Shown: piece after piece, positions 10,317 to 25,426 of the stretch
Numbering within the stretch: position 1 is the first letter of the stretch
Layout of the letters: each line of letters begins with the position of its first letter
NCBI GenBank assembly: GCA_040879145.1
Contig: JBBDKX010000021.1
Span: 29,256 to 93,255 of the forward strand
Reading direction: 5' to 3'
Length of the DNA stretch: 64,000 bases
Source of the DNA: Candidatus Spechtbacterales bacterium
Lineage (GTDB): Bacteria > Patescibacteriota > Minisyncoccia > Spechtbacterales > 2-12-FULL-38-22
Notes under the pieces: generated by a model
What the model saw: only the letters and a program-made list of their open reading frames with translations
Database searches by the model: none
What the model was told of the DNA's origin: nothing
Program-made: the position numbers and the translations under genes

Positions 10317-10337
10317 GATTTTGTTTAAATCTTATTT

Positions 10338-10729
10338 TGGCGGTGTTTTTTGATTGATGTTCGAACTTTTTTTGAGGAAAACCCCCAATAAGGAAGCCAG
10401 CCCCGCCACGGCTCGGAAACCTCGCCACACCACAGAAAAATACTCTTTGCTCTTTTCATTTTGCGCGCGCCGGATTTCTTTTTCTTCTAATGAAAAGAGT
10501 ATTTTTCTGCGGTGTTCTGCCCTCCAAGTATTCGGGCAGGTGGCGGGGCTGTCCTCAATTTGATTTCGTAAAGAAAAAGCGGAATTCCCCCCAAACCCCC
10601 CTTCCGCTTTTTCTTTTCTCAAACGGAACGGGAACGGAAGCAGTCGGGCAAAAATTCCTTCCCCCCAAACCCCTTCCTTTTTGCCCGCCTGCTTGGGCTT
10701 CGCCCACAAAACTTTTCGGCGGGACGGCG
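10338..10729. repeat. 392-bp inverted repeat, copy 1 (IR-A1); GC-rich, highly self-complementary; partner at 20572-20964
   Basis: Reverse complement matches 20572..20964 with only a few mismatches; ends in TTGGCGGTG. Confidence 0.9.
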
Positions 10730-11467
10730 TTATTTTATCAAATTCCAATTATCGAGGAAATATCCCATTTCGTGATCTTTATTTCCGAGATACACTTTTT
10801 CGTCTCTAAATTTGATATTCACTCGATAGCGTTTTCCATGCCCGACTTCCAAAATGGCTTTTTCGTGGACTTTCTTTTCAACTTCATGAAATGGCAAAAT
10901 CAAAAAATTGTTTTTCTTCTCGCCGTGCAAAACAAAAATATAGTAAATATTTCCGTTGCTGTGGCGTTCAAAAGACACTTTGCGAATATCAAAAACATAA
11001 GTATCAAAACTATTCAAATTTGAGGTTTTAACCTGTATGCCAAACAATTGATTTTCTTTGACCGCCACAATATCCATTCCCACATCTACGCTCATTATAC
11101 TGGCGTTGAAACCACGAAAAAGCAACTCGCTACAAACTAAATACTCGCCAGCTTTTCCGGTAAATCCACCAGCAATAACAATTTTTTCTTCTTCCTCTTT
11201 TTCCGCTTCAATAATCTTTGGCGTTTCTTTGATTTCTTTTTTGTTTGGATTGAGCGCAAAAGTTCCGGGTGCGGTTTTGATAAAATCCGAGCCTTCAACT
11301 TTGGTTTTAATATCTACCGTGATTTGCGCGTTCATTGATGCTTCTGGTGTTGCGCCTTCTGTTTCCAAAATACCAGACTCCAAAGCCAACCGAGTGATTT
11401 CGGTATAATGCAAGGGCGTTTTTGCCTTTTTCAATATTTCAATTGCCGATTGTTTGAATGTGTTCAT
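10730..11467 (-). CDS. HARE-HTH (Mrr_N-like winged helix) + restriction-endonuclease-fold protein; candidate Mrr-like nuclease
   Basis: N-term SAIEILKKAKTPLHYTEITRLALESG...GSDFIKTAPGTFAL (HARE-HTH); middle GEYLVCSELLFRG...DVGMDIVAVKE...IQVKT resembles a PD-(D/E)xK core; translationally coupled to upstream gene. Confidence 0.5.
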   Translation of the reverse strand: MNTFKQSAIEILKKAKTPLHYTEITRLALESGILETEGATPEASMNAQITVDIKTKVEGSDFIKTAPGTFALNPNKKEIKETPKIIEAEKEEEEKIVIAGGFTGKAGEYLVCSELLFRGFNASIMSVDVGMDIVAVKENQLFGIQVKTSNLNSFDTYVFDIRKVSFERHSNGNIYYIFVLHGEKKNNFLILPFHEVEKKVHEKAILEVGHGKRYRVNIKFRDEKVYLGNKDHEMGYFLDNWNLIK

Positions 11468-11468
11468 A

Positions 11469-12755
11469 TTATTCTAAGGTTTTATCGTTATCAGAAAGCT
11501 CTGCAAATTTAGCTTCCATTGTGGGATTTCCGCGCGTTAGTCTTTTGATTGTTAAATCTTCAGCTTTATTATTGGCAAGGCGAAGATTATTTTCAGAAGA
11601 CAAGAGAGCGTCTTTAGTTTTTTGAAGATGATCAATGGTTCTGTCTATTTCTTCAATAGCGGTTTTAAATTTGCGACTAGCAAGATCATAATTTTTGGCA
11701 AAACCTTCTTTAAACTTATTTATATTATCCTCAAAGTTTGTTATATCAACATTTTGGCTTTTAACTAAAGCGAGTTCAGCTTTATATTTCAGTGAGTTCA
11801 TCGCCGCGTTGCGAAGCAAGGTAATAATTGGAATGAAAAATTGTGGACGAACAACATACATTTTGGGGTATTTATGAGCAACATCAACAATTCCGGTGTT
11901 GTATAGCTCATTTTCAGCTTCCAAAAGCGAAACAAGAACGGCATACTCGCATTTCTTTTCAGTACGATCTTTGTCTAGTTCTCGCAAAAAATCGTCGTTT
12001 CGTTTTTTTGTAGCAGTTTCATCTCCCTCATTCTTCATCTCAAACATGATTGAGATAATTTCATTGCCGGTTTCGTCGGTCTCTCGATAAACATAATCAC
12101 CCTTACTTCCTGTTTTTGAATCGTTATCTTTTTCAAAATAAGCGTGTTGAAAAGCAGTCGCGCGAAGTTTGTTAAATTCGGTTTCGCAATGCTGTTCAAG
12201 TGTTTCCCCAACCATTTTGGTTGAGAGCTTGAGCTTCATATCTTTGCGAAGGGCGATCTCATCATCTTTCATCTTTATAATATCGTCTTTGGTTTTAAGA
12301 TCGGCTAAATACTTTTCAAGCAATGATTTTTCCAGCAGTTGTTTTTCGGTTTCTTTGCTTTTTAGGTCATTAGCCAGATCATCACGCTCTTTTTCAATCT
12401 TTTTGACTGCTTCGGTAACACTGAGTTTTTTCTCTACCTCAGATTTATCAATCTTTGATTTCATTTCGGCGAGTTCAGCTTCCTTCTTCGCCAATTGTTC
12501 AGCAAGACTGCGATCCTTCTCGGCTCTTAACTCCACCAGTTCTTTATCTTTCTTCGCGAGTTCGTCTTGTAATGTATTTTTGAGATTGGATTCGGCTAAT
12601 TTAACAGCACTTTCTTTTTCCTTTTCCGCAATATTTAATCGCTCACGCAATTCTTCTTCAAATTTATGATCACGAACCTGTTTGAGGATATCAGCAAAAC
12701 CAGCCTCATCGACTTTGAAAACTTTTTTACAATTTGGACATATAATATCTTGCAT
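11469..12755 (-). CDS. DUF2130-like protein: N-terminal zinc ribbon, long coiled coil, C-terminal globular (RmuC/nuclease-like) domain
   Basis: [20 protein letters not shown], then about 200 aa of Glu/Lys coiled coil, C-terminal [22 protein letters not shown]; 18 nt after hsdR. Confidence 0.5.
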
Positions 12756-12773: not shown

Positions 12774-15700
12774 TTATAACTTACCACCTGAAATATCAAA
12801 GAATCGCTCAAAGAAACTTGTTAGCTTATACAAAACACTTTCTCGTTTCTGTGTTCTTTCACCAGTTGGAGAAAATCGAGACACGGGCGGTAATACTTTT
12901 GATATCGCAGTACCAGTTGTTGCAACGCTTCCGTCTCGAAAAGCATTTTTTATAAATTTATAGGTTGCCTCTTTATCAAGATTTTCATTTTCAATAATTT
13001 TTTCCAATTCCTCAATCTTCTTTTCTTCTACAAATTTTTGCCAATCTTCATCAACAATTGAATGCACATCAAGAGAGGTAATAAATTGATTAATGAGATC
13101 CTTTTTATTTCGGAGTTCAACGCTAGAATCAATCGCTTTATTAATATCAACCAAAAGTTCTTTATTCTTTGTATGATCTTCGTGATATCTTTTTATAAGC
13201 CCTAAAATATAATCAATATTAATCTCGACTTGCTTAATAAGCTCCATTTCAAAGACTAGATCGTCATTAACATTTTCTTGTTCTCCATCAACACCTTTGC
13301 GAAATTCATTATACAAATCAATATACATGCTGTGATAATCCTGCACATCACGCTCGGTCAGAATTTCATTACCTGCGAATTCATCAAAAGTTGTCAGGAT
13401 ATTTCGCACACGCAAAACCGCTCCATATAATTTGATAAAATCTTTTTGGTTCTGTTCTCCAACAATACTTTCACCGACTGGAAATTTCTCTAAAAGTTCG
13501 TCTATTAAACTTTTGTAACCCCGGACTTGTTTTTCGCCGTCTTTATAGCCATTGTAATAATCGGCATAGGCTTTCAGCAGGACAATGCCACATGCTTCTT
13601 TGTCTCCAAAAAGTGCAATAGATTCGTTAGTTGCTTTTTCTAGGTTGCGAAAACAAACAATATTTCCAAAGGTTTTTACACTGTTTAAAATGCGGTTTGT
13701 TCTGGAAAATGCTTGTAACAATCCATGTAAACGAAGATTTTTATCAACCCATAAAGTATTAAGAGTTGTTGCGTCAAATCCGGTCAAAAACATGTTTACC
13801 ACAATCAAAATATCTATTTCTCTTTTTTTAACTCTTTCGCTTACATCTTTATAATAATTTTGAAACTTATCTGACGAAGTATCATAGGAAGTTCCAAACA
13901 TCTTGTTATAATCAACGATAGCTTTTTCCAGAAAATCTCGAGAGCTGACATCAAGTCCGCTCGTATCTTCAGAATTTTCATCAATCATTCCGTCCGCGTC
14001 TTCATCATTGACCCCAAAACTAAAAATCGTAGCTATTTTAAGTCGTTTGTCGCTTGGCTCGTCGGTTAGTTGCTTTTTAAATTCAAGATAATACTTTTTT
14101 GCCACATCAATAGACGAAACGGCAAAAATAGAATTAAATCCCGCCAGTCTGCGATCCTGAATTTTATAAAAACTATTTCGTTTTGTCTTTTGGTCAAAAT
14201 GTTCTCGAATATATCGGACAATATTTTCCAGTCGCTCTGGGGCGCAAAGTATAGCCTCGCGATCAATATCTTTCACTTTTGCATCTTCAATATTTTCCGC
14301 TTCACGAACTGTAGAAACATAATCAACCTTAAACGGCAAAACATTTTTGTCAGCAATTGCATTGACGATTGTGTAAGTGTGCAATTTTTCTCCAAAAGCT
14401 TGTTCGGTAGTTTTGAAATCAATGCGACCGCCAGATGAAGAATTTACCGCAAAAATTGGCGTGCCGGTAAAGCCAAAAAGATGATAATTGTTAAATGCTT
14501 TGACGATACTCGCATGCATATCGCCAAATTGTGAACGATGGCACTCGTCAAAAATCAAAACAATATGTCCGTCAAAAATAGTGTGTCCAGAGTTTCGATT
14601 GATAAATCTGTCTAATTTTTGAATCGTTGTAATAATTATCCGAGAATTAGAATTTTCTAATTGTTTTTTCAAAATAGCGGTACTGGTATTGCTATTCGCC
14701 GCCCCTTTTTCAAATTTGTCATACTCTCGCATTGTTTGATAGTCCAAATCCTTACGATCAACTACAAATAAAACTTTATCTACATAAGGTAATTTGCTGA
14801 CGAGTTGAGCGGTTTTAAAACTGGTCAAAGTCTTTCCCGAACCTGTCGTATGCCAAATATAACCGCCTGCTTCTATTGTCCCTAGTTTTTTATAATTTGT
14901 ACTAACCTCAACTCTGCTCAATATTCGTTCGGTAGCAACTATTTGATATGGTCGCATCGCTAAAAGCTGTTTATCGGTAGTAAACACACAATATTTAGTC
15001 AAAATATTCAAAATCGTATGCTTGGCAAAAAATGTCTTGGCAAAATCCATCAGCTCGGTAATTGGTTTATTTGTCGCGTCTGCCCACCAGCTCGTAAATT
15101 CAAAACTATTGCTCGATCTTTTTCCTTTTTTGATTTTGCCTTCGCTTGCTTCTTTTATGTGCTGTGATCTGGTTGTATTGCTGTAATATTTGGTATGCGT
15201 TCCATTGGAAATAATAAAAAGTTGTACATATTCAAAAAGTCCGCTGGATGCCCAAAAACTTTCTCGTTGGTAACGATTGATTTGATTAAATGCTTCTTGG
15301 ATGGCGACACCACGGCGTTTTAGCTCGATATGAACAAGAGGAAGTCCGTTTACCAGAACTGTCACATCATAACGATTCACTCGCTGTCCGTCCTCGGTCG
15401 CATATTGATTGATCACCTGCAAGCTGTTGTTGTGAATATTTTTCTTGTCTATTAGATCAATATTCTTAAAAGTGCCGTCATCTCGGTCTAATATTTTTGT
15501 GCTATCTTCTTGAATAGTGGCGGTTTTTTCTTCAATGCTTTGATTTGGATTGGCAATAATACTGACAAAAAACTTTCCCCATTCGGTATCGGTAAAAGTA
15601 AAATTATTTAGTTTTTCCAACTGTTGACGCAGATTAAGAACAAGCTCATTTTCAGAAGTGATTTTCAAATATTCGTATGCTTGCGTTTCTAATTGTTTTA

Positions 15701-15827
15701 TAAAAACACTCTCAAGATCGGCTTCACTTTGGTAGTGAGCCACTCTTTTGGTATCTGGAACATACTCGGCAACAACCGTGCTTTGAGTGCTTTCGGCGAC
15801 TAAGTTGTATTTATTCTTATTTGGCAT
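12774..15827 (-). CDS. hsdR: Type I restriction enzyme R subunit (HsdR)
   Basis: 1017 aa; HsdR_N, helicase motif I HTTGSGKTLT, motif II FDECHRSQ, C-terminal HsdR_C; overlaps hsdS by 11 nt. Confidence 0.9.
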   Translation of the reverse strand: MPNKNKYNLVAESTQSTVVAEYVPDTKRVAHYQSEADLESVFIKQLETQAYEYLKITSENELVLNLRQQLEKLNNFTFTDTEWGKFFVSIIANPNQSIEEKTATIQEDSTKILDRDDGTFKNIDLIDKKNIHNNSLQVINQYATEDGQRVNRYDVTVLVNGLPLVHIELKRRGVAIQEAFNQINRYQRESFWASSGLFEYVQLFIISNGTHTKYYSNTTRSQHIKEASEGKIKKGKRSSNSFEFTSWWADATNKPITELMDFAKTFFAKHTILNILTKYCVFTTDKQLLAMRPYQIVATERILSRVEVSTNYKKLGTIEAGGYIWHTTGSGKTLTSFKTAQLVSKLPYVDKVLFVVDRKDLDYQTMREYDKFEKGAANSNTSTAILKKQLENSNSRIIITTIQKLDRFINRNSGHTIFDGHIVLIFDECHRSQFGDMHASIVKAFNNYHLFGFTGTPIFAVNSSSGGRIDFKTTEQAFGEKLHTYTIVNAIADKNVLPFKVDYVSTVREAENIEDAKVKDIDREAILCAPERLENIVRYIREHFDQKTKRNSFYKIQDRRLAGFNSIFAVSSIDVAKKYYLEFKKQLTDEPSDKRLKIATIFSFGVNDEDADGMIDENSEDTSGLDVSSRDFLEKAIVDYNKMFGTSYDTSSDKFQNYYKDVSERVKKREIDILIVVNMFLTGFDATTLNTLWVDKNLRLHGLLQAFSRTNRILNSVKTFGNIVCFRNLEKATNESIALFGDKEACGIVLLKAYADYYNGYKDGEKQVRGYKSLIDELLEKFPVGESIVGEQNQKDFIKLYGAVLRVRNILTTFDEFAGNEILTERDVQDYHSMYIDLYNEFRKGVDGEQENVNDDLVFEMELIKQVEINIDYILGLIKRYHEDHTKNKELLVDINKAIDSSVELRNKKDLINQFITSLDVHSIVDEDWQKFVEEKKIEELEKIIENENLDKEATYKFIKNAFRDGSVATTGTAISKVLPPVSRFSPTGERTQKRESVLYKLTSFFERFFDISGGKL

Positions 15828-16998
15828 ATTCTTTTTCTTTGAAAGTTAGAAGTTTCCCTCGGTAGTATTCATATTGTGATCGACGAGCTTTGAGTTCAGC
15901 CGGTAAGCCAATTGAAATATCATTTACAAGGGCATCAAATTTGTCGAGGATTGAAACAATTCGTTTTTGTTCGGGTAAGAGTGGAATAGGAATTTTAAAC
16001 TCTTTTACCTTGGCATCTGAAATTGATGGATATGCAGAACCTTCTTGCTTCTGTTCAACATAATCATTAAAACGACTAGAAGCAATATTGAAATATATCC
16101 ATTTTGGCAGAACTTTTTTTTCATCTGCTCTTAAAACACAATATCCAGTACTTGCAATCTGCCCGTCATAAACATCATCAATTAGAGTATATCGTCGTAG
16201 GGTTGGACGAGTGGTTGCAAAAATCACATCATCTTTTTGTATAAGTTTTTGCGCTCTACTAGGTGCGTTATTTGAATTAATTTCAACAGTTTCATTTATA
16301 CTATGATCATCACGGCTAACAGATGTTAAATCAATATATTTATAAATTTTGTCTATTTCTTTCCATTTTATATTTTGAGTTGAGAATGTTACTTCCCCCA
16401 AAGTTTTATATTCTACATCTTTTATATTCAACAAATCATCTCGATAATGCTCATACTGCTTCTTCCTCGCCTCCAGCTCTGCCTCCAGCTCTGCCTCCAG
16501 CTCTGTAAAACTATCAAGAATTTTGACGATTTCTTGTTGGACTGGGAGGGGTGGGATGGGGATTTTGATTTTTTCCATTACATTACTCATTATCTTGGGA
16601 TTTCCCATTCCAGCACTAACATATTTTTTAGATAATGTCGCCAAGATATATGAAAGGAACTTCATGTTCACATTCCTATCTTTAGCTTTCAAAAGTCCGC
16701 AAACATTCGTAATACTAAATTTTCCGTTACGATAGAAAATTGAACCAGCATATGCTCCGTCAGTTGTCCAAGTTATATACTCACCGTCATAGTCATAAGT
16801 ATTGATGCGACCAAAAACACCGTTGTCCGCTGTTTGAGATGAATACACTGGATACTCGCCGGCATTTTCATTCAAATAATCTTTTGACATTACTCTCCCG
16901 CGATTGATTTGGCAGATTTCACCAATACTCTTTAACTCAATCCCATTCGGGCAAAGTTCAGCAATTAGTTTTTCGATTTTAGATTGATTAGTTATCAT
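15817..16998 (-). CDS. hsdS: Type I restriction-modification specificity subunit (HsdS), two target-recognition domains
   Basis: 393 aa; conserved central region LPPLPVQQEIVKILDSFTELEAELEAELEARKKQYEHYRDDLL and C-terminal LPEQKRIVSILDKFDALV...LKARRSQYEYYRGKLL. Confidence 0.85.
   Translation of the reverse strand: MITNQSKIEKLIAELCPNGIELKSIGEICQINRGRVMSKDYLNENAGEYPVYSSQTADNGVFGRINTYDYDGEYITWTTDGAYAGSIFYRNGKFSITNVCGLLKAKDRNVNMKFLSYILATLSKKYVSAGMGNPKIMSNVMEKIKIPIPPLPVQQEIVKILDSFTELEAELEAELEARKKQYEHYRDDLLNIKDVEYKTLGEVTFSTQNIKWKEIDKIYKYIDLTSVSRDDHSINETVEINSNNAPSRAQKLIQKDDVIFATTRPTLRRYTLIDDVYDGQIASTGYCVLRADEKKVLPKWIYFNIASSRFNDYVEQKQEGSAYPSISDAKVKEFKIPIPLLPEQKRIVSILDKFDALVNDISIGLPAELKARRSQYEYYRGKLLTFKEKEYAK
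16468..16503. repeat. 12-bp tandem repeat x3 (CGCCTCCAGCTC / TGCCTCCAGCTC x2) encoding (ELEA)n in hsdS central conserved region
   Basis: Directly visible in sequence; in-frame 4-aa repeat ELEAELEAELEA. Confidence 0.9.
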
Positions 16999-18593
16999 AA
17001 TTTTTTAAGTGAATCGACATCGCTTTCTATATATCCTCTTAAGATATCAATTGACTCTTTCAGTTTTTCATCAAAATCACCCTTCTTGTTTGCCGGATAA
17101 TGGATACAATTTCTAATAAATGTTGGCAATGTTACTTTCGCATTTTTTACTTTAGGTTTACTTGTATCAGTACAGTCTTTTTCAGCTTTTTTTATTTGTT
17201 TGAGATATTGTTCATCAAAAGCATTTATACCTATACTTTCAATATGCTTTGATTCATCTTTTTCTTTAGAGTTCTTGTCATTAACAAACCAATCTCTTAA
17301 TTTATCGTAAAGTTCGTTGTGGTATTGTTCATCTAAAATGTCGAAAACTTCATATGACACTTCTGCATAGCTTGTTTGTTTTTTACCTAATTCATCAACC
17401 TCTCGTACATTTGTATATTCTTCATTATTTTGATTTTTTATCTTTTCAACTCGATAATATCTACCCAAATCTTTTTTATCAATCATGTAGTTCGAGTGTG
17501 TGGCGAATAAAACAATATTACTTTTGCTATTGTTTGTAATCTCTACAAGCTGAGCAAGTAAATGCTCTTGTGCTTTTGGATGTAAATGTGTTTCAGGCTC
17601 ATCAAGTAAAATAATTGTATTTTGCAGTTCCTCATTTTTATTTTCTGCAACGACAGTTAATAAAAAAGAAATGAATTGCTTAAAACCATCACTCCGCATG
17701 TCTGATGTCTGAGCTTTTCCTTCTGTATCAATATCTTTAACATGAAAATTAATATGCCCATCCATTATCTTAAATGTAATTTCTATAGGATGTTTGGGCC
17801 AAGCTGTATTAATATGCTCTGTTACATTTTTGCCAAGTCTCTTTTCAAGATATTCACAAGTTGGAGTATCAGCTAAAGCATCCTCTAGTTCCTGTTTTAT
17901 TTTATCTTGAGAAATTGAAGATAGTAAAAAACAGTTTCTCAGAGGTATTGAGGTGTTTGTGTCATTAATAAACTGTTCAATATTTATCGGTTTTGAAATT
18001 AGATAACGATCTTCTGCAGTCCAGAAAATTGTTTTATGTACATTTTCCTCTATAAAGTTATCAAATTCATCTTTGTTATTGATTTCAATTTCTTGATCTC
18101 CTTCAAAAACTGAAGTTGAATATTCAGGATCAGCACTAGCCTTAGAAAAACTAATAACATAATCTGCAATCAAAGAGCTCAAAATTTTATTCTTTGGTTT
18201 TTTAACTTCCTTAATTTTACTATCTTCAACATCTTGCGTCTGCCCACCTTCTATAGCAGAAACTTCTTTTTCTAAATTTGGGACTGGATTATCAACAGAA
18301 TCTTCTTTATTTAAAATCTCGTACAATTCCTTATCCTCTTTCGAAGTAATACTATATCGATAAGTAATTTTTATTTCTTCTTTTAATCTAAAGTCTTTTA
18401 ATAATGGAAGTTTTGTACCAGAGTCGTCAACTAATCCATCTTTTAAGCCAATCGCTTTTAATATAGATGATTTACCAGCTTCATTTATTCCTATTAATCC
18501 GTAAGTGAAACTATTGTCATCTCTTTTGATTATGTTAAAAGGAGTTTCTTTTATACTTCTATAATTTTCAATTGTAATTTTTGTGATTTTCAT
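16995..18593 (-). CDS. ABC/SMC-like AAA ATPase (OLD/AAA_15-like head) with about 130-aa C-terminal domain of unknown function, embedded between hsdM and hsdS
   Basis: Start reassigned to MKITKITIENYRSIK (ATG 18593, 4 nt after hsdM stop); Walker A GINEAGKSSILKAIGL; Walker B ILLDEPETHLHP; ATHSNYMID. Confidence 0.7.
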   Translation of the reverse strand: MKITKITIENYRSIKETPFNIIKRDDNSFTYGLIGINEAGKSSILKAIGLKDGLVDDSGTKLPLLKDFRLKEEIKITYRYSITSKEDKELYEILNKEDSVDNPVPNLEKEVSAIEGGQTQDVEDSKIKEVKKPKNKILSSLIADYVISFSKASADPEYSTSVFEGDQEIEINNKDEFDNFIEENVHKTIFWTAEDRYLISKPINIEQFINDTNTSIPLRNCFLLSSISQDKIKQELEDALADTPTCEYLEKRLGKNVTEHINTAWPKHPIEITFKIMDGHINFHVKDIDTEGKAQTSDMRSDGFKQFISFLLTVVAENKNEELQNTIILLDEPETHLHPKAQEHLLAQLVEITNNSKSNIVLFATHSNYMIDKKDLGRYYRVEKIKNQNNEEYTNVREVDELGKKQTSYAEVSYEVFDILDEQYHNELYDKLRDWFVNDKNSKEKDESKHIESIGINAFDEQYLKQIKKAEKDCTDTSKPKVKNAKVTLPTFIRNCIHYPANKKGDFDEKLKESIDILRGYIESDVDSLKKL

Positions 18594-18597
18594 AAAT

Positions 18598-20178
18598 TTA
18601 TCGTTTAGTATTTTCAATATCCGCCACAATCTCATCAATCGCAGTACGCAGTTCATTTTGTCTTGACACGATCTTGGCAATTTTTTCGTTGAGTTCCGTT
18701 ATATTCACCACCTCGCGTGTATCTTCCGCCATCACATAACTTGAAACCGCAATATTGTAATCATTCTCACCAATAGTTTTATTATCAACTAACTTTGCAA
18801 AATACTCTGCATCTTGTCGTAGCGTAAAAGCATCAAGAATTTTTTTGCGATTTCCTTCGCTCAATTTATTTTTATTTCCGCCCCGTACAAATTCAGCCGA
18901 GGCATCAATAAATAAAGTTTTGTTGTCTTTTTTGCTTTTTTTCAAAACAATAATGCAAGTAGCAATAGTCACCCCAAAAAATAGATCGGGGGGAAGCTGG
19001 ATAACCGTATCAATATAGTTATTATCAACCAAATACTTGCGGATTTTTTGTTCAGCTCCGCCACGATAGAGAACTCCCGGAAATTCAACAATCGCCGCCG
19101 TTCCGCTGGTTGAAAGCCACGCAAGCATGTGCATGGTAAAAGCGAGATCAGCTTTGCTCTTTGGCGCCAACACCCCAGCCGGCGAAAAACGCGGATCATT
19201 AATCATCAAAGGATTGGCATCGCCGTCCCACTTTATCGAATATGGCGGATTAGAAACAATGGCGTCAAACGGTTCATCATCCCAATGTTTTGGATCAGTG
19301 AGTGTGTCGCCGTGAGCAATATCAAAATGATTGTAATTAATATCATGCAAAAACATGTTGATACGGCAAAGATTGTAGGTAGTGAGATTTATTTCTTGAC
19401 CAAAAAATCCCTGCCTGACATTTTCCTTGCCAAGCACTTTTGCAAATTTCAAAAGAAGCGAACCAGATCCACAGGCTGGATCGTAGACTTTATTAACTTC
19501 TGTTTTGCCTGCTGTTGCGATTTCCGCCAAAAGCTCGCTCACTTCTTGAGGTGTATAATATTCTCCGCCAGATTTACCAGCATTAGATGCGAACATCGCC
19601 ATTAAATATTCGTAAGCATCACCAAAAGCGTCGATTGTATTATCTCCATAATTACCAAGACGAAGATCGCCGATGGCTTCTAAAAGTTTTACGAGTTTTT
19701 GATTTCTTTTCTCTACAGTTCCACCGAGCTTATTTGAATTCACATCTAAATCGTCAAATAATCCTTTCAAGTCATCTTCACTATCAAATCCTTTCGCAGA
19801 ATTTTCGATATTATCAAAAACATTTGAAAGTGTTTCGTTAAGTTTTGCATCGTTGCGAGCATTTTTACGAACATTTACAAAAAGAGCACTTGGTAAAATA
19901 TAAAAACCTTTTTCTTTTATAGTGTCGGCTCTTCCAAATTCAGCTTCTTTATCAGAAAGTGAAGCATAATCAAAATCTTTGTTGCCGGTGCGTCGCTCAT
20001 CGGCATTGATGTAATTTGTAAGATTTTCGCTGATGAAACGATAAAAAAGTATTCCAAGAACATATTGCTTGAAATCCCACCCATCAACGGCACCTCGCAA
20101 ATCATTGGCAATCTGCCAAATAGCACGATGAAGTTCGGCTCGTTCTTGTTCTTTGGTTGTATTTAGATTATTTGCCAT
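18598..20178 (-). CDS. hsdM: Type I restriction-modification DNA methyltransferase (HsdM), N6-adenine
   Basis: 526 aa; HsdM_N; SAM motif YDPACGSGSLL; catalytic SNPPYSIKW. Confidence 0.9.
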   Translation of the reverse strand: MANNLNTTKEQERAELHRAIWQIANDLRGAVDGWDFKQYVLGILFYRFISENLTNYINADERRTGNKDFDYASLSDKEAEFGRADTIKEKGFYILPSALFVNVRKNARNDAKLNETLSNVFDNIENSAKGFDSEDDLKGLFDDLDVNSNKLGGTVEKRNQKLVKLLEAIGDLRLGNYGDNTIDAFGDAYEYLMAMFASNAGKSGGEYYTPQEVSELLAEIATAGKTEVNKVYDPACGSGSLLLKFAKVLGKENVRQGFFGQEINLTTYNLCRINMFLHDINYNHFDIAHGDTLTDPKHWDDEPFDAIVSNPPYSIKWDGDANPLMINDPRFSPAGVLAPKSKADLAFTMHMLAWLSTSGTAAIVEFPGVLYRGGAEQKIRKYLVDNNYIDTVIQLPPDLFFGVTIATCIIVLKKSKKDNKTLFIDASAEFVRGGNKNKLSEGNRKKILDAFTLRQDAEYFAKLVDNKTIGENDYNIAVSSYVMAEDTREVVNITELNEKIAKIVSRQNELRTAIDEIVADIENTKR

Positions 20179-20451: not shown

Positions 20452-20571
20452 AGTATATGAAATTTTTAGCATTTAGTCAAACAAAATTAGGGAGTTCTTT
20501 TGACATAACGCGCGCACGGGTGGGTGGGGCAAGCGTTATCCCTCTTTTATCCTCTCTTTTGTTTTCTGTCC

Positions 20572-20964
20572 CGCCGTCCCGCCGAAAAGTTTTGGGGGCG
20601 AAGCCCAAGCAGGCGGGCAAAAAGGAAGGGGGTTGGGGGGAAGGAATTTTTGCCCGACTGCTTCCGTTCCCGTTCCGTTTGAGAAAAGAAAAAGCGGAAG
20701 GGGGGTTTGGGGGGAATTCCGCTTTTTCTTTACGAAATCAAATTGAGGACAGCCCCGCCACCTGCCCGAATACTTGGAGGGCAGAACACCGCAGAAAAAT
20801 ACTCTTTTCATTAGAAGAAAAAGAAATCCGGCGCGCGCAAAATGAAAAGAGCAAAGAGTATTTTTCTGTGGTGTGGCGAGGTTTCCGAGCCGTGGCGGGG
20901 CTGGCTTCCTTATTGGGGGTTTTCCTCAAAAAAAGTTCGAACATCAATCAAAAAACACCGCCAA
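20572..20964. repeat. 392-bp inverted repeat, copy 2 (IR-A2)
   Basis: Near-identical reverse complement of 10338..10729; ends ...CACCGCCAA, overlapping the start of IR-B1. Confidence 0.9.
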
Positions 20965-21091
20965 TTTTCACTTTTTGTGAAATCGTAAGGAATTGCCTCG
21001 GCGCAAAGCGCCTCGGCATGGTATTTTTCCGCAATTTTGAAGGCATTTTTGAAATCCAAAAACAAAGAGCGGTCGGCAATGCGGAAGTTCG
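20958..21091. repeat. About 134-bp inverted repeat IR-B1 (inverted copy of the recombinase 3' coding end plus tRNA-Ser-proximal sequence)
   Basis: Reverse complement identical to 22575..22709. Confidence 0.85.
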
Positions 21092-21205: not shown

Positions 21206-22819
21206 ATGGACAACATAAATTTACAAACCAAAAAGTTTTTCCTCTATGCCCGTAAATCCACGGACGAACCCGAAAGGCAGGTTTTGAGTATTGAAGCGCA
21301 AATTTTCGAGCTGAAAGAATACGCCCGAAAAGAAAATTTGCAGATCGTCCGTGAATTTGTGGAAAGCAAAACCGCCAAAGAACCCGGGCGAGAAATTTTT
21401 AATGAAATGGTGGCGGGCATAGAGAAAAACGAAGCCGAGGGAATTTTAGCGTGGCACCCTGACCGTCTTGCTCGCAATTCCATAGACGGCGGACGAATAA
21501 TCTATCTTGTAGATACTGGAAAGATCACCACGCTAAAATTTCCAACTTTTTGGTTTGATTCAACTCCACAGGGAAAATTTATGTTGTCCATTGCTTTTGG
21601 GCAATCAAAATACTATGTGGATAATCTTTCGGAAAATATAAAGAGGGGTATTCGCCAGAAATTGCGAAATGGAATTTGGCCCGCTTGGGCGCCACTTGGC
21701 TATATAAACGATAAAAACGCTCGCTGTATCGCTGTGGACAAAGAAAAGGCGAAGTATATCAAGCGGGCTTTTGAAATGTATTCAACTGGCGAATATCCCC
21801 TCGCTCAAATCCGAAAGATTATCAATTCCTTGGGCTTGGTTGGCAAGAAAGGCAAAATGCTTTCCGTCTCAAATTATCAATATATGCTCAAGAACAAAAT
21901 ATATTTTGGCATGATTGAATATAACGGCGAATTGTATGACGGAAAGCATGAACCGATTATCACAAAGAAACTTTTTGATTCTGTTCAAGAAGTGATGATG
22001 AAAAAATCCAAACCGAAAACGCCAAAATTGAAACCGTATGTGTATAGAGGATTTTTCCGTTGCGGAGAGTGTGGCTGTTTCATAACTACCGAAACGCAGA
22101 AAGGTCATAACTACCTGCGATGCACTAAACGGAAAAATCCTTGCACGCAAAAATATGTTCGCGAGGAAATCATCACTTCTCAAATAAAAGAGGAAATCAA
22201 AAAAGTTTCTTTGTCTTCCGCTTGGGCAAACGCTTCAATCAATTATTTTGAAAATGAAAAATTGAAAACCGCCCAAGCGGAAAGCTCTTTTGCCCAAAAG
22301 TCGCGAGATGAGCTTGTGGAAACAGAAACAAAACTTGATCGTTTGCTTGATTTACATTTGGAAGGCAGTTTGTCGCAAACGGAATATGCTACTAAAAAGC
22401 ACAAGCTCATTCTCGCAAAAAAGGATTTGGAAGAAAAAATCTCGTCTTTTGGGCGAAAGAGCAATAATCGGTTCGAACTTGCCATAAACTTCATAAAAGA
22501 AGCCAACCAAGCCGAAAAATACGCTCAACAAGAAAATCCCGAAAGGATTCGGGATTTTCTCAAAAAGATTGGTTCGAACTTCCGCATTGCCGACCGCTCT
22601 TTGTTTTTGGATTTCAAAAATGCCTTCAAAATTGCGGAAAAATACCATGCCGAGGCGCTTTGCGCCGAGGCAATTCCTTACGATTTCACAAAAAGTGAAA
22701 ATTGGCGGAGGGGGTGGGACTCGAACCCACATAGGCTTGCGCCTGCCAGTTTTCAAGACTGGTTCCTTAGCCAATTCGGAGCACCCCTCCTTATTTATTT
22801 TTTCTTCTTTTTACCCTGA
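21206..22819 (+). CDS. Large serine recombinase (resolvase N-domain + recombinase domain + zinc ribbon + coiled coil)
   Basis: YARKSTDEPERQ catalytic Ser motif; PLGYIND recombinase domain; CGECGCFITTETQKGHNYLRC zinc ribbon; ORF as predicted runs through IR-B2 and antisense across tRNA-Ser, so true stop is uncertain. Confidence 0.8.
   Translation: MDNINLQTKKFFLYARKSTDEPERQVLSIEAQIFELKEYARKENLQIVREFVESKTAKEPGREIFNEMVAGIEKNEAEGILAWHPDRLARNSIDGGRIIYLVDTGKITTLKFPTFWFDSTPQGKFMLSIAFGQSKYYVDNLSENIKRGIRQKLRNGIWPAWAPLGYINDKNARCIAVDKEKAKYIKRAFEMYSTGEYPLAQIRKIINSLGLVGKKGKMLSVSNYQYMLKNKIYFGMIEYNGELYDGKHEPIITKKLFDSVQEVMMKKSKPKTPKLKPYVYRGFFRCGECGCFITTETQKGHNYLRCTKRKNPCTQKYVREEIITSQIKEEIKKVSLSSAWANASINYFENEKLKTAQAESSFAQKSRDELVETETKLDRLLDLHLEGSLSQTEYATKKHKLILAKKDLEEKISSFGRKSNNRFELAINFIKEANQAEKYAQQENPERIRDFLKKIGSNFRIADRSLFLDFKNAFKIAEKYHAEALCAEAIPYDFTKSENWRRGWDSNPHRLAPASFQDWFLSQFGAPLLIYFFFFLP
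22575..22709. repeat. IR-B2 (partner of 20958-21091), ending in the tRNA-Ser 3' terminus
   Basis: Sequence identity with reverse complement of IR-B1. Confidence 0.85.
22703..22790 (-). tRNA. tRNA-Ser (anticodon UGA), long variable arm, CCA encoded
   Basis: Minus-strand GGAGGGGTGCTCCGAATTGGCTAAGGAACCAGTCTTGAAAACTGGCAGGCGCAAGCCTATGTGGGTTCGAGTCCCACCCCCTCCGCCA; cloverleaf and anticodon loop CTTGAAA. Confidence 0.85.
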
Positions 22820-23500: not shown

Positions 23501-23538
23501 ATAAAATATTAGCTTGTTCTGTTTAATTATTGCTGATG

Positions 23539-23623
23539 CGGAGGAGGTGGGATTCGAACCCACGGGCCGCTAACGCGGCACGGTTTAGCAAACCGTCCCA
23601 TTTGACCACTCTGGCACTCCTCC
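23539..23623 (-). tRNA. tRNA-Ser (anticodon GCU), long variable arm
   Basis: Minus strand GGAGGAGTGCCAGAGTGGTCAAATGGGACGGTTTGCTAAACCGTGCCGCGTTAGCGGCCCGTGGGTTCGAATCCCACCTCCTCCG. Confidence 0.8.
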
Positions 23624-23643: not shown

Positions 23644-24660
23644 TTAATTGTTGTATTTTTTCAAATGTTTAGGATTATTACTGCTTATTGTATCAAAATA
23701 AATTTTCATGTCATGCTTACTATCCAAACGCACATCCCGCCCTGCCAGTCTTGGATTTAAGCCAGTATTGCGCATTATTTTGAAAACTGAATTTCTAAGG
23801 GGTTCTGAATAAGATGTAAATGACAGTTTTTTATAAGAGTACTCCTTACTCTTAACTCTATATCTATGAATAAAAATAGAGCCATCTGTGTCAACCAAGC
23901 CCCGCAGGCACGCAATTTCGAAATCTTTATCACCCATTATCCATTTCGGTATATCTACCTGCTTTTTTATTTTATTACCTCTTACTAAACCCAGATTATT
24001 TTCACAAAACCTTACTAACTCTACTCGAGATACCGCATAAATACACGCATTAGCATCTTTTCGTTCGTGAATTCCCACATATACTCCAAACAGATTCTCC
24101 ATTAAATTTTTTACATATACGCCATATTTTTTATCATCTTTACTATGAAGTGTAACTGTAACCTGTTGATTAGATATACCCCCATCCCCTAACATTATTC
24201 CAACAAACTCTGCAAGGCTTTTTGAGTATTTAGGTTTTTTAATTTTTATTGGAGCACTTGTAAGCCCGCTTGACTTAAAACGCCCTTCTTTCTCCCACCA
24301 TTCATACCATTTCTGTTTTCTGTATTTCTCATTTTTTGGCATTTCCCCATACTTACTAATAACAGCCTCCCACCCCAACTTTGCGCCTTCATGCGCATAC
24401 CAATATTTATCTAACATCGTTATATCTTTAGGCCAAGATTGTTTAGATTTCTCACATAAAATTTTCAACGATTTTTCATTTATTAAAAATTTTTCACGTC
24501 GCCAATCTCTAACAGTACGCTCAGACCTACCACACCACTTTGCCATTTGTTCAACTGAAAACTCTTTTTCTATATTTTCTATAAAAGCTTTTTGTTTTCC
24601 TTTTGGAAATCTTATTCTGCTATCTTTAATCTTTTCAGCCATATCTCCATAATACACCAT
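23644..24660 (-). CDS. Free-standing LAGLIDADG homing endonuclease (two motifs) with N-terminal HTH-like region
   Basis: LAEFVGIMLGDGGIS and LRGLVDTDGSIF LAGLIDADG motifs; 338 aa; 21 nt upstream of tRNA-Ser(GCT). Confidence 0.8.
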   Translation of the reverse strand: MVYYGDMAEKIKDSRIRFPKGKQKAFIENIEKEFSVEQMAKWCGRSERTVRDWRREKFLINEKSLKILCEKSKQSWPKDITMLDKYWYAHEGAKLGWEAVISKYGEMPKNEKYRKQKWYEWWEKEGRFKSSGLTSAPIKIKKPKYSKSLAEFVGIMLGDGGISNQQVTVTLHSKDDKKYGVYVKNLMENLFGVYVGIHERKDANACIYAVSRVELVRFCENNLGLVRGNKIKKQVDIPKWIMGDKDFEIACLRGLVDTDGSIFIHRYRVKSKEYSYKKLSFTSYSEPLRNSVFKIMRNTGLNPRLAGRDVRLDSKHDMKIYFDTISSNNPKHLKKYNN

Positions 24661-25199: not shown

Positions 25200-25272
25200 G
25201 CGCCCGTAGTTCAGCGGATAGAACGCTTCCTTGCGGAGGAAGAGGCCGCAGGTTCAATTCCTGCCGGGCGCA
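25200..25272 (+). tRNA. tRNA-Arg (anticodon GCG by my fold; anticodon assignment tentative)
   Basis: GCGCCCGTAGTTCAGCGGATAGAACGCTTCCTTGCGGAGGAAGAGGCCGCAGGTTCAATTCCTGCCGGGCGCA; flanked by 18-bp inverted repeat CCGCACTAAAAATATGCG / CGCATATTTTAGTGCGG. Confidence 0.7.
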
Positions 25273-25426
25273 CAAATCGCATATTTTAGTGCGGGACATG
25301 TGCCGCGCAACTACAAAGTCGCAGGCGAAGTCCCGTCACCAAAAAAGTATTTTATTTTTGATTGAGCGAAGCGAAAGATATACTTTTTCTGGTGCGGGAT
25401 TCGACTCCTGTCGGGGACGCCAAAAA

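Follow-up and report, generated by a model that had tools for sequence, protein, structure and literature searches.

An ABC ATPase with a predicted HEPN-like domain encoded between hsdM and hsdS in a Candidatus Spechtbacterales bacterium

A precedent for a latent RNase standing behind restriction-modification (R-M) is the anticodon nuclease PrrC, encoded in the type IC hsd locus of EcoprrI, and further ABC-HEPN proteins embedded in R-M loci have been described (PMC3710099). Fusions of an ABC ATPase to a HEPN domain are known beyond PrrC and RloC, namely APECO1_4465 and ERFG_01251, the latter described with an MNT-type HEPN domain (Anantharaman et al., 2013). Another parallel is PARIS, in which an OLD-type ATPase senses anti-restriction proteins. 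Type I R-M loci have been shown to harbor many unrelated systems, whose role in defense has been inferred from their embedding (Payne et al., 2024). Here, gene X is described from a 64,000-nucleotide (nt) stretch of contig JBBDKX010000021.1 of a Candidatus Spechtbacterales bacterium (the window, to which all coordinates refer), where it lies between hsdM and hsdS. At a probability of roughly 45%, X is a self-contained ABC-HEPN effector of the abortive-infection type, a predicted RNase that is expressed jointly with the type I methyltransferase core and plausibly serves as a backup to R-M where restriction is blocked by phages.

The X gene and its two modules

Gene X belongs to an operon for which the following features were located:

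16995..18593, minus strand: gene X, stop codon included; ATG start, 532 amino acids (aa); ABC ATPase of the OLD clade joined to a C-terminal HEPN-like domain
18598..20178, minus strand: hsdM, type I methyltransferase (N6_Mtase 1e-114, HsdM_N 3e-21)
15817..16998, minus strand: hsdS, specificity subunit (Methylase_S 1e-53, in two stretches corresponding to two target-recognition domains)
12774..15827, minus strand: hsdR, EcoR124/type IC-like (HSDR_N, SWI2_SNF2, T1R_D3-like, and EcoR124_C, all <=1e-46)
20452..20480, minus strand: promoter-like site, TTGACT-17-TATACT, 10/12 matches, about 270 nt upstream of hsdM; possible operon promoter on weak evidence

On the minus strand the gene order is hsdM-X-hsdS-hsdR, an intact type I operon followed by a DUF2130 gene and a HARE-HTH gene, and HsdM, HsdS, and HsdR each give a full-length Pfam match. 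The extent of X given by the original prediction, with its 532 aa, its position 4 nt behind hsdM, and its 4-nt overlap with hsdS, is read directly in the sequence: the hsdM/X junction is TAA-ATTT-ATG, and X ends in TTA-TGA, the TGA of which shares ATGA with the ATG of hsdS. A further overlap of 11 nt joins hsdS to hsdR. No terminator-like site was found on the minus strand over the span from hsdM to hsdR, and the site counts do not exceed those expected from shuffled sequence. X appears to be co-transcribed and translationally coupled with hsdM and hsdS, so that its synthesis would go along with that of the type I methyltransferase core. An alternative TTG start at 18680, which would create an 83-nt overlap with hsdM, was ruled out by the N-termini of homologues; these align to M1 of the ATG form, which is therefore taken as correct. 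Nor is X a chance open reading frame (ORF), since an identical protein occurs in a metagenome-assembled genome (MAG; P0001) of Candidatus Spechtbacterales, within the Candidate Phyla Radiation (CPR)/Patescibacteria, and at least 648 homologues exist.

The X protein is divided as follows:

17400..18593, minus strand: ABC ATPase module, aa 1-398, with AAA_15/AAA_21 matches and all catalytic motifs
18465-18491, minus strand: Walker A motif GINEAGKSS, aa 35-43
17673-17696, minus strand: ABC signature RSDGFKQF, aa 300-307
17577-17609, minus strand: Walker B motif LLDEPETHLHP, aa 329-339
17493-17504, minus strand: H-loop ATHS, aa 364-367
18195..18293, minus strand: low-complexity, acidic and lysine-rich insertion in the ATPase head, aa 101-133, predicted local distance difference test score (pLDDT) <50
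16998..17399, minus strand: C-terminal HEPN-like domain, aa 399-532, with helices 409-415, 422-443, 456-467 (within an insert), 489-498, and 507-531
17097..17114, minus strand: HEPN-type motif R494-N-C-I-H498-Y499, located where the penultimate helix ends; Tyr takes the place of the canonical His
17301..17327, minus strand: Q-Y-H425-N-E427-L-Y-D-K431, an invariant His and E-x3-K at the start of the long helix

The OLD-like ABC ATPase that had been predicted for the N-terminal part is borne out by several kinds of search. A Pfam scan of X gave AAA_15 (6e-22 over aa 1-371), AAA_21 (2e-16), and a weak AAA_27 match, and the best PADLOC matches are all defense ABC ATPases, among them Old (3e-24), AbiLi, AriA, PtuA, GajA, HEC-01A, and mad3. 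Full-length X also has sub-threshold NCBIfam matches to the retron Eco8 effector, MAD3, and TIGR04435, a 'restriction system-associated AAA ATPase'. When the AlphaFold model of the full protein (pLDDT 88.7, predicted template modeling score, pTM, 0.83) was searched with Foldseek, Rad50/SMC heads, PtuA of Septu, retron complexes, and GajA were retrieved at E~1e-13. The Walker A, Walker B, ATHS, and IRNCIH (aa 493-498) motifs are all present as predicted. N37, E38, G40, K41, D331, E332, and H366 are invariant among 118 X homologues, as is the Ser-Asp-Gly of the signature. With Lys41 of Walker A, Asp331-Glu332 of Walker B, the signature, and His366 of the H-loop unvarying, the module appears to be a functional ABC ATPase of the OLD clade. 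The insertion in the head domain, which had also been pointed out beforehand, is confined to the close clade of the query and appears as an alignment gap in homologues at 44-51% identity.

Residues 399-532 are likewise conserved across the X family. The statement that the last ~130 aa belong to no nameable family holds for Pfam, NCBIfam (searched with the full-length protein), and PADLOC; no described HEPN family was matched in Pfam, PADLOC, or PDB profile searches, and no confident match to a non-defense function came up for the domain. HEPN domains are defined by an Rx4-6H motif at the end of helix 3, a polar N, D, or H after the R, and an upstream acidic residue, typically in Ex3[KR] (PMC3710099), and the sequence features of the X domain agree with this description. 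Modeled alone, the domain is a helical bundle (pLDDT 81, core >90) in which a short helix (409-415) and a long one (422-443) come first. An insert composed of a helix and a hairpin (444-488) separates these from helix 489-498 and a last helix (507-531). E427-x3-K431 opens the long helix, and R494-N495 closes helix 489-498. Among the 118 homologues, H425 is conserved at 100%, R494 at 99%, N495 at 96%, E427 at 93%, H498 at 92%, and T491 and S514 at 96-100%, and E-x3-[KR] is found in 79. That R494, N495, H425, T491, and S514 are 96-100% conserved suggests a pocket under selection. The C-terminal part is a distinct, conserved module, and its predicted model appears to be similar to HEPN RNase domains.

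When only the C-terminal domain was used in an exhaustive profile search, 867 clusters at 50% identity were obtained. The domain always stands at the extreme C-terminus, in proteins of 400-530 aa, and an AAA_15/21 ATPase precedes it in all eight full-length divergent members scanned; shorter profile matches look like fragments. By inspection, 44 of 46 divergent members carry R-[NH]-x-[IM]-[HDN]-H-P-[ED]-N, a canonical R-x4-H. The diverse alignment A4 shows no variation at R494 and has His at position 499 in at least 90% of its sequences. The R-x3-H of the query therefore does depart from canonical HEPN spacing, as originally remarked, and does so through replacement of the family's His by Tyr in the query clade. 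Positions 498/499 of the 118 closer homologues read HY (60), HH (48), NH (5), DH (3), AH (1), and HN (1), such that every one keeps a His at 498 or 499.

Several longer members (618-769 aa) were also observed, namely L019:10001-11815 from Leptonemataceae, P0248, and P0264. These retain the C-terminal domain and owe their extra length to large inserts in the ATPase head or to a lysine/serine-rich C-terminal tail; the head inserts may be a variable sensor surface. No full-length family member was found among INPHARED phages or in IMG/VR, and tblastn against PLSDB plasmids gave matches to the ATPase core only, apart from one true distant member. This protein, on Lactobacillus helveticus plasmid pLH1 (L089:5224-6696, WP_176452117.1), is a solitary 490-aa 'ATP-binding protein' that is 28% identical to X and carries RNEIDH. 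The plasmid is small and mobilizable, and its member is the only one found in a cultured, genetically tractable lineage among the annotated collections, which makes it a convenient entry point for experiments.

Comparison with described systems

X resembles PrrC in that one polypeptide carries an ABC ATPase in its N-terminal part and, at its C-terminus, a HEPN-type domain of ~130 aa (HEPN-like by model in X), and in being encoded inside a type I hsd operon that is likewise EcoR124/IC-like. The two nevertheless differ in their parts. The ATPase of X is of the AAA_15/OLD type with no AAA_13 match at E<=0.01 in Pfam, and a search of 29 C-terminal domains of the X family against PADLOC at E<=1 returned neither PrrC nor RloC. 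Furthermore, X occupies the slot hsdM-X-hsdS, as opposed to hsdS-prrC-hsdR; about half of the X family is embedded, whereas PrrC is almost exclusively so (Payne et al., 2024); and the motif of the query is R-x3-H, Tyr having taken the canonical His position. RloC differs in addition by a long coiled-coil/zinc-hook insert that X lacks. Membership of X in the PrrC/RloC family was rejected on the absence of AAA_13, the lack of C-terminal similarity, and the different slot. The PrrC/RloC-style rider of the original prediction is accordingly retained for its architecture and hsd context and abandoned as a statement of kinship: on the best reading, X is PrrC-like in architecture and context, but arose as an independent fusion and is not related by descent.

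Judged by description only, the X family may overlap with ERFG_01251. It differs from the ABC-HEPN fusions of Anantharaman et al. (2013) in that neither a HEPN/Toprim-NTD1 domain nor a CRISPR or prophage context was observed, and viral copies were not encountered either. The enterobacterial plasmid matches annotated as 'AAA family ATPase' were considered as ERFG_01251-like relatives and rejected, as these are classical OLD-Toprim proteins.

The systems of the OLD clade (P2 Old, GajA, AriA/AriB of PARIS, AbiLi/AbiLii, PtuA/PtuB of Septu, and the retron Eco8 and Ec78 effectors) share the ATPase clade of X and the principle of an ABC ATPase sensor controlling a nuclease effector, which in X is predicted. 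Unlike OLD and Gabija, X has no Toprim match in Pfam, and it is therefore not an OLD or Gabija nuclease. As a positive control, a class 1 OLD from an Escherichia albertii plasmid gave OLD-like_TOPRIM at the place where X has its HEPN-like domain, and alignment of the X C-terminal profile to this OLD by hhalign had a probability of 0.3%. PARIS, AbiL, and Septu are set apart by a partner effector gene (the Toprim-DUF4435 AriB/AbiLii or the HNH PtuB); X has no Toprim, HNH, or helicase partner gene, its neighbors being hsdM and hsdS, and thus it is not a member of these systems. HEC-01 to HEC-04 and the PDCs (Payne et al., 2024) are similar in that ABC ATPases are nested in multi-gene, R-M-like systems with variable effectors. 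However, HEC-01A matches X only at E~1e-13 and only over the ATPase core, and the effector of X is fused and HEPN-like in place of Toprim, NERD, or PIN. In PADLOC v2.0.0, which includes the HEC models, no model covers the C-terminal domain of X.

Genomic context of the family

The original prediction asked whether homologues recur in hsd loci. Context was surveyed at 39 loci from one-genome-per-species contigs and through 12 look-ups of metagenomic homologues, of which 43 loci were informative. Recurrent embedding was indeed observed, with 21/43 loci lying in type I operons, nearly all of them between hsdM and hsdS; these loci span two or more type I families and come from several phyla. A further 3/43 adjoin other R-M genes (two type III-like, one type II/IV), so that the family is far from never being associated with R-M. 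At L022 and L024, X lies beside a methylase and helicase pair that looks like type III, and in one close relative, carried by a conjugative element, the gene comes after an EcoRI-type methylase and a GmrSD/HNH gene.

Among the embedded loci of the species-representative survey, 12/14 have the order hsdM-X-hsdS, and the other two read M-S-X and M-?-R-X. The upstream gap in the twelve is -14 to +13 nt in 11 (+50 nt in L019), and the downstream gap is -11 to +3 nt. Embedded copies come from Patescibacteria, Alphaproteobacteria, Nitrosomonas (Proteobacteria), Bacteroidota, and Leptonemataceae (Spirochaetota), with HsdR partners of the EcoR124 type (the window, P0002, P0010, P0014) or the EcoEI type (P0071, P0035, P0109). 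Within the query clade, at 65-89% identity, the embedding is kept at different chromosomal sites. Solitary copies have the same domains and motifs and are flanked by intergenic gaps of 130-320 nt. No neighboring gene family recurs among 22 solitary loci (maximum 3/22), which suggests that X is a self-contained, single-gene system. A neighbor-joining tree places a mostly embedded clade with solitary escapes beside a mostly solitary sister clade and shows repeated switches between the two states. The phyletic distribution is sporadic and patchy, and some copies lie on conjugative or other mobile elements next to toxin-antitoxin (TA) and R-M genes.

The same tree indicates that H499Y (codon 17097-17099) arose in at least 3-4 lineages. 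HY copies are R-M-linked in 11/12 cases, compared with 11/29 for other motifs (Fisher one-sided p=0.0018, uncorrected for phylogeny), and 10-11 R-M-linked copies retain the canonical HH or DH. Six fresh homologues included three with HY, two of them embedded and one (P0083) solitary; a rule that HY occurs only in R-M-embedded copies is refuted by P0083, and the tendency remains.

In the hsd loci of relatives, the embedded extras comprise 221-aa and 364-aa proteins of unknown nature, a KilA-N protein, and a C39 peptidase with a 217-aa unknown, and RhuM genes lie nearby. The surroundings of the hsd locus in the window contain these features:

11469-12755, minus strand: DUF2130 gene (DUF2130 match 5e-87), 18 nt behind hsdR
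10730-11467, minus strand: HARE-HTH gene with a weak PD-(D/E)XK_5 nuclease match, 1 nt behind the DUF2130 gene
10337-10729 and 20572-20964: 393-nt inverted repeat, 99% identical, bracketing the whole hsd locus
20958-21091 and 22575-22708: 134-nt inverted repeat, 100% identical, adjoining the 393-nt repeat and bracketing a serine recombinase gene
21206-22819: large serine recombinase gene (Resolvase, Recombinase, and Zn_ribbon_recom), abutting tRNA-Ser(TGA)
22703-22790: tRNA-Ser(TGA)
23538-23623: tRNA-Ser(GCT)
23644-24660, minus strand: free-standing LAGLIDADG homing-endonuclease ORF, 338 aa (LAGLIDADG_3 and LAGLIDADG_2 matches)
25200-25273: tRNA-Arg

Close behind hsdR, the DUF2130 and HARE-HTH genes may be further defense- or restriction-associated genes appended to the operon; they were rejected as conserved members of the system, being absent from the hsd loci of relatives. 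The block of ~12.4 kb between a RidA/L-PSP gene and tRNA-Ser(TGA) has the look of a mobile or invertible island with the R-M operon as its cargo. Alternatively, the repeat around the hsd locus could be an artefact of MAG assembly. An Rfam search of the 393-nt repeat gave no match. Just beyond the island, the LAGLIDADG ORF sits between tRNA-Ser(GCT) and tRNA-Arg.

Candidate function and rival explanations

For X as an ABC-HEPN effector, the OLD-clade ABC ATPase would act as an ATP-driven sensor or switch and the C-terminal HEPN-fold domain as a predicted metal-independent RNase. In the uninfected cell, the HEPN domain would be kept inactive by the ATPase module or by the Hsd complex, much as EcoprrI holds PrrC. 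An infection cue would then alter the nucleotide state or the dimerization of the ABC heads; by analogy with PrrC/EcoprrI and PARIS, the likeliest cue would be a phage anti-restriction protein that inhibits the R-M enzyme. Two HEPN domains, presumably paired through dimerization of the ABC heads given the general behavior of HEPN and ABC proteins, would form an active RNase. Its cleavage of tRNA or of some other RNA would halt translation, with abortive infection or growth arrest as the outcome. The RNase activity, the trigger, and the physical or functional coupling to R-M are inferred.

Several observations weigh against this effector. Profile and sequence searches of Pfam, PADLOC, and the PDB with the C-terminal domain, including those with a diverse profile, returned chance matches only, and Foldseek of the domain-only model against the PDB gave nothing below E=5. 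For the abortive-infection effector suggested at the outset, a HEPN domain is favored by a model that appears to resemble HEPN RNases and by the fit of the family motif, but not by any sequence or profile match or by Foldseek of the domain alone. The query and its clade carry RNCIHY, in which Tyr replaces the canonical His and leaves H498 in an R-x3-H; the catalytic competence of the query is uncertain because of this Tyr at 499. Furthermore, 19/43 homologous loci are solitary, so that R-M is not required for the function of the family. Unrelated genes also occupy the same hsd junctions in relatives (P0002, L087, L117). Both junctions, hsdM-hsdS as well as hsdS-hsdR, therefore act as hot spots for cassettes, and the embedding of X could simply reflect such a hot spot.

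The alternative that survives best, in itself rather unlikely, takes up the last of these points: the same ABC-HEPN effector would be fully autonomous, with its own ATPase sensing infection as in RloC and OLD, and merely lodged in the hsdM-hsdS junction, where it is co-transferred and co-expressed. The solitary homologues with unchanged domains and motifs, the repeated switches on the tree, the unrelated cassettes in the hsd slots of relatives, and the close relative that follows an EcoRI-type methylase and GmrSD gene with no hsd genes all fit such a passenger. Many unrelated systems are embedded in type I loci, and PrrC, unlike the X family, is almost exclusively embedded (Payne et al., 2024). 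However, the presence of about half of the loci in one slot, with start/stop overlaps and in several phyla and two or more families of type I systems, far exceeds what a generic passenger would show. The query clade is moreover embedded throughout, at different chromosomal sites over 65-89% identity, and the enrichment of H499Y in R-M-linked copies (11/12 versus 11/29) hints at co-adaptation.

A second alternative, which is quite improbable, is that the C-terminal domain of the query clade is no longer a nuclease and serves as a module for dimerization or for binding RNA, DNA, or protein, such that X would assist or regulate the type I enzyme in an ATP-dependent manner, acting in assembly, restriction control, or sensing. 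Y499 in place of a nearly invariant His, its appearance in at least 3-4 lineages and mostly in R-M-linked copies, and the tight translational coupling of X with hsdM and hsdS agree with this, and HEPN domains without the motif are known as non-catalytic binders, for example MtlR (PMC3710099). Yet R494, N495, H498, H425, T491, and S514 are 92-100% conserved, also in the 60 HY sequences, as would be expected of a working pocket, and the substitution is always Tyr, unlike random decay. An alternative His is used in some HEPN families (AbiV, AF0298; PMC3710099), the HY member P0083 is solitary, and 10-11 R-M-linked copies keep HH or DH. Finally, a housekeeping SMC/RecF/Rad50-like ATPase for DNA repair or chromosome maintenance that came to lie in the hsd operon by chance is scarcely credible, as the Rad50 and SMC heads among the best PDB matches of the full model and a weak RecF match (E=6e-4) are set against the lack of coiled-coil arms and of Mre11/ScpA-type partners, the patchy distribution and context switching, the best family matches being all defense ATPases, the apparent likeness of the C-terminal model to toxin RNases, and the copies on conjugative or mobile elements near TA and R-M genes.

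A bolder extension of the effector reading, speculative and distinctly unlikely, is that the X family consists of OLD-type ABC ATPases in which Toprim was swapped for a HEPN RNase and which repeatedly became a 'fourth subunit' of type I operons, stoichiometric with HsdM and HsdS; the convergent change from RNCIHH to RNCIHY in embedded lineages would then mark the point at which an autonomous RNase turned into an effector or regulator under the control of the restriction complex. On this extension, X would be a second, independently evolved PrrC-like guard, protecting genome-reduced CPR bacteria.

For decades, PrrC is said to have offered the only worked-out case of a latent RNase that sits inside a type I restriction system and is guarded by it. 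X belongs to a large, unnamed, and uncharacterized family, for which the notion of an ABC ATPase-HEPN rider of R-M systems is already known and the architecture is what specialists would expect. The experimental appeal of X lies in its independent origin, its abundance in CPR, and a His-to-Tyr switch linked to embedding, and the correlation of this switch with hsd embedding offers a concrete handle on functional coupling. The family is abundant in Patescibacteria/CPR, where the biology of defense is almost unexplored. It would be a tractable single-gene system in which to study how ABC ATPases sense anti-restriction or infection, and it could be added to PADLOC as a model. If the effector reading is true, a second family in the same kind of operon, in which an ATPase of the OLD clade is combined with a HEPN-like domain of the MNT type, would make R-M plus a suicide RNase a convergent and general design.

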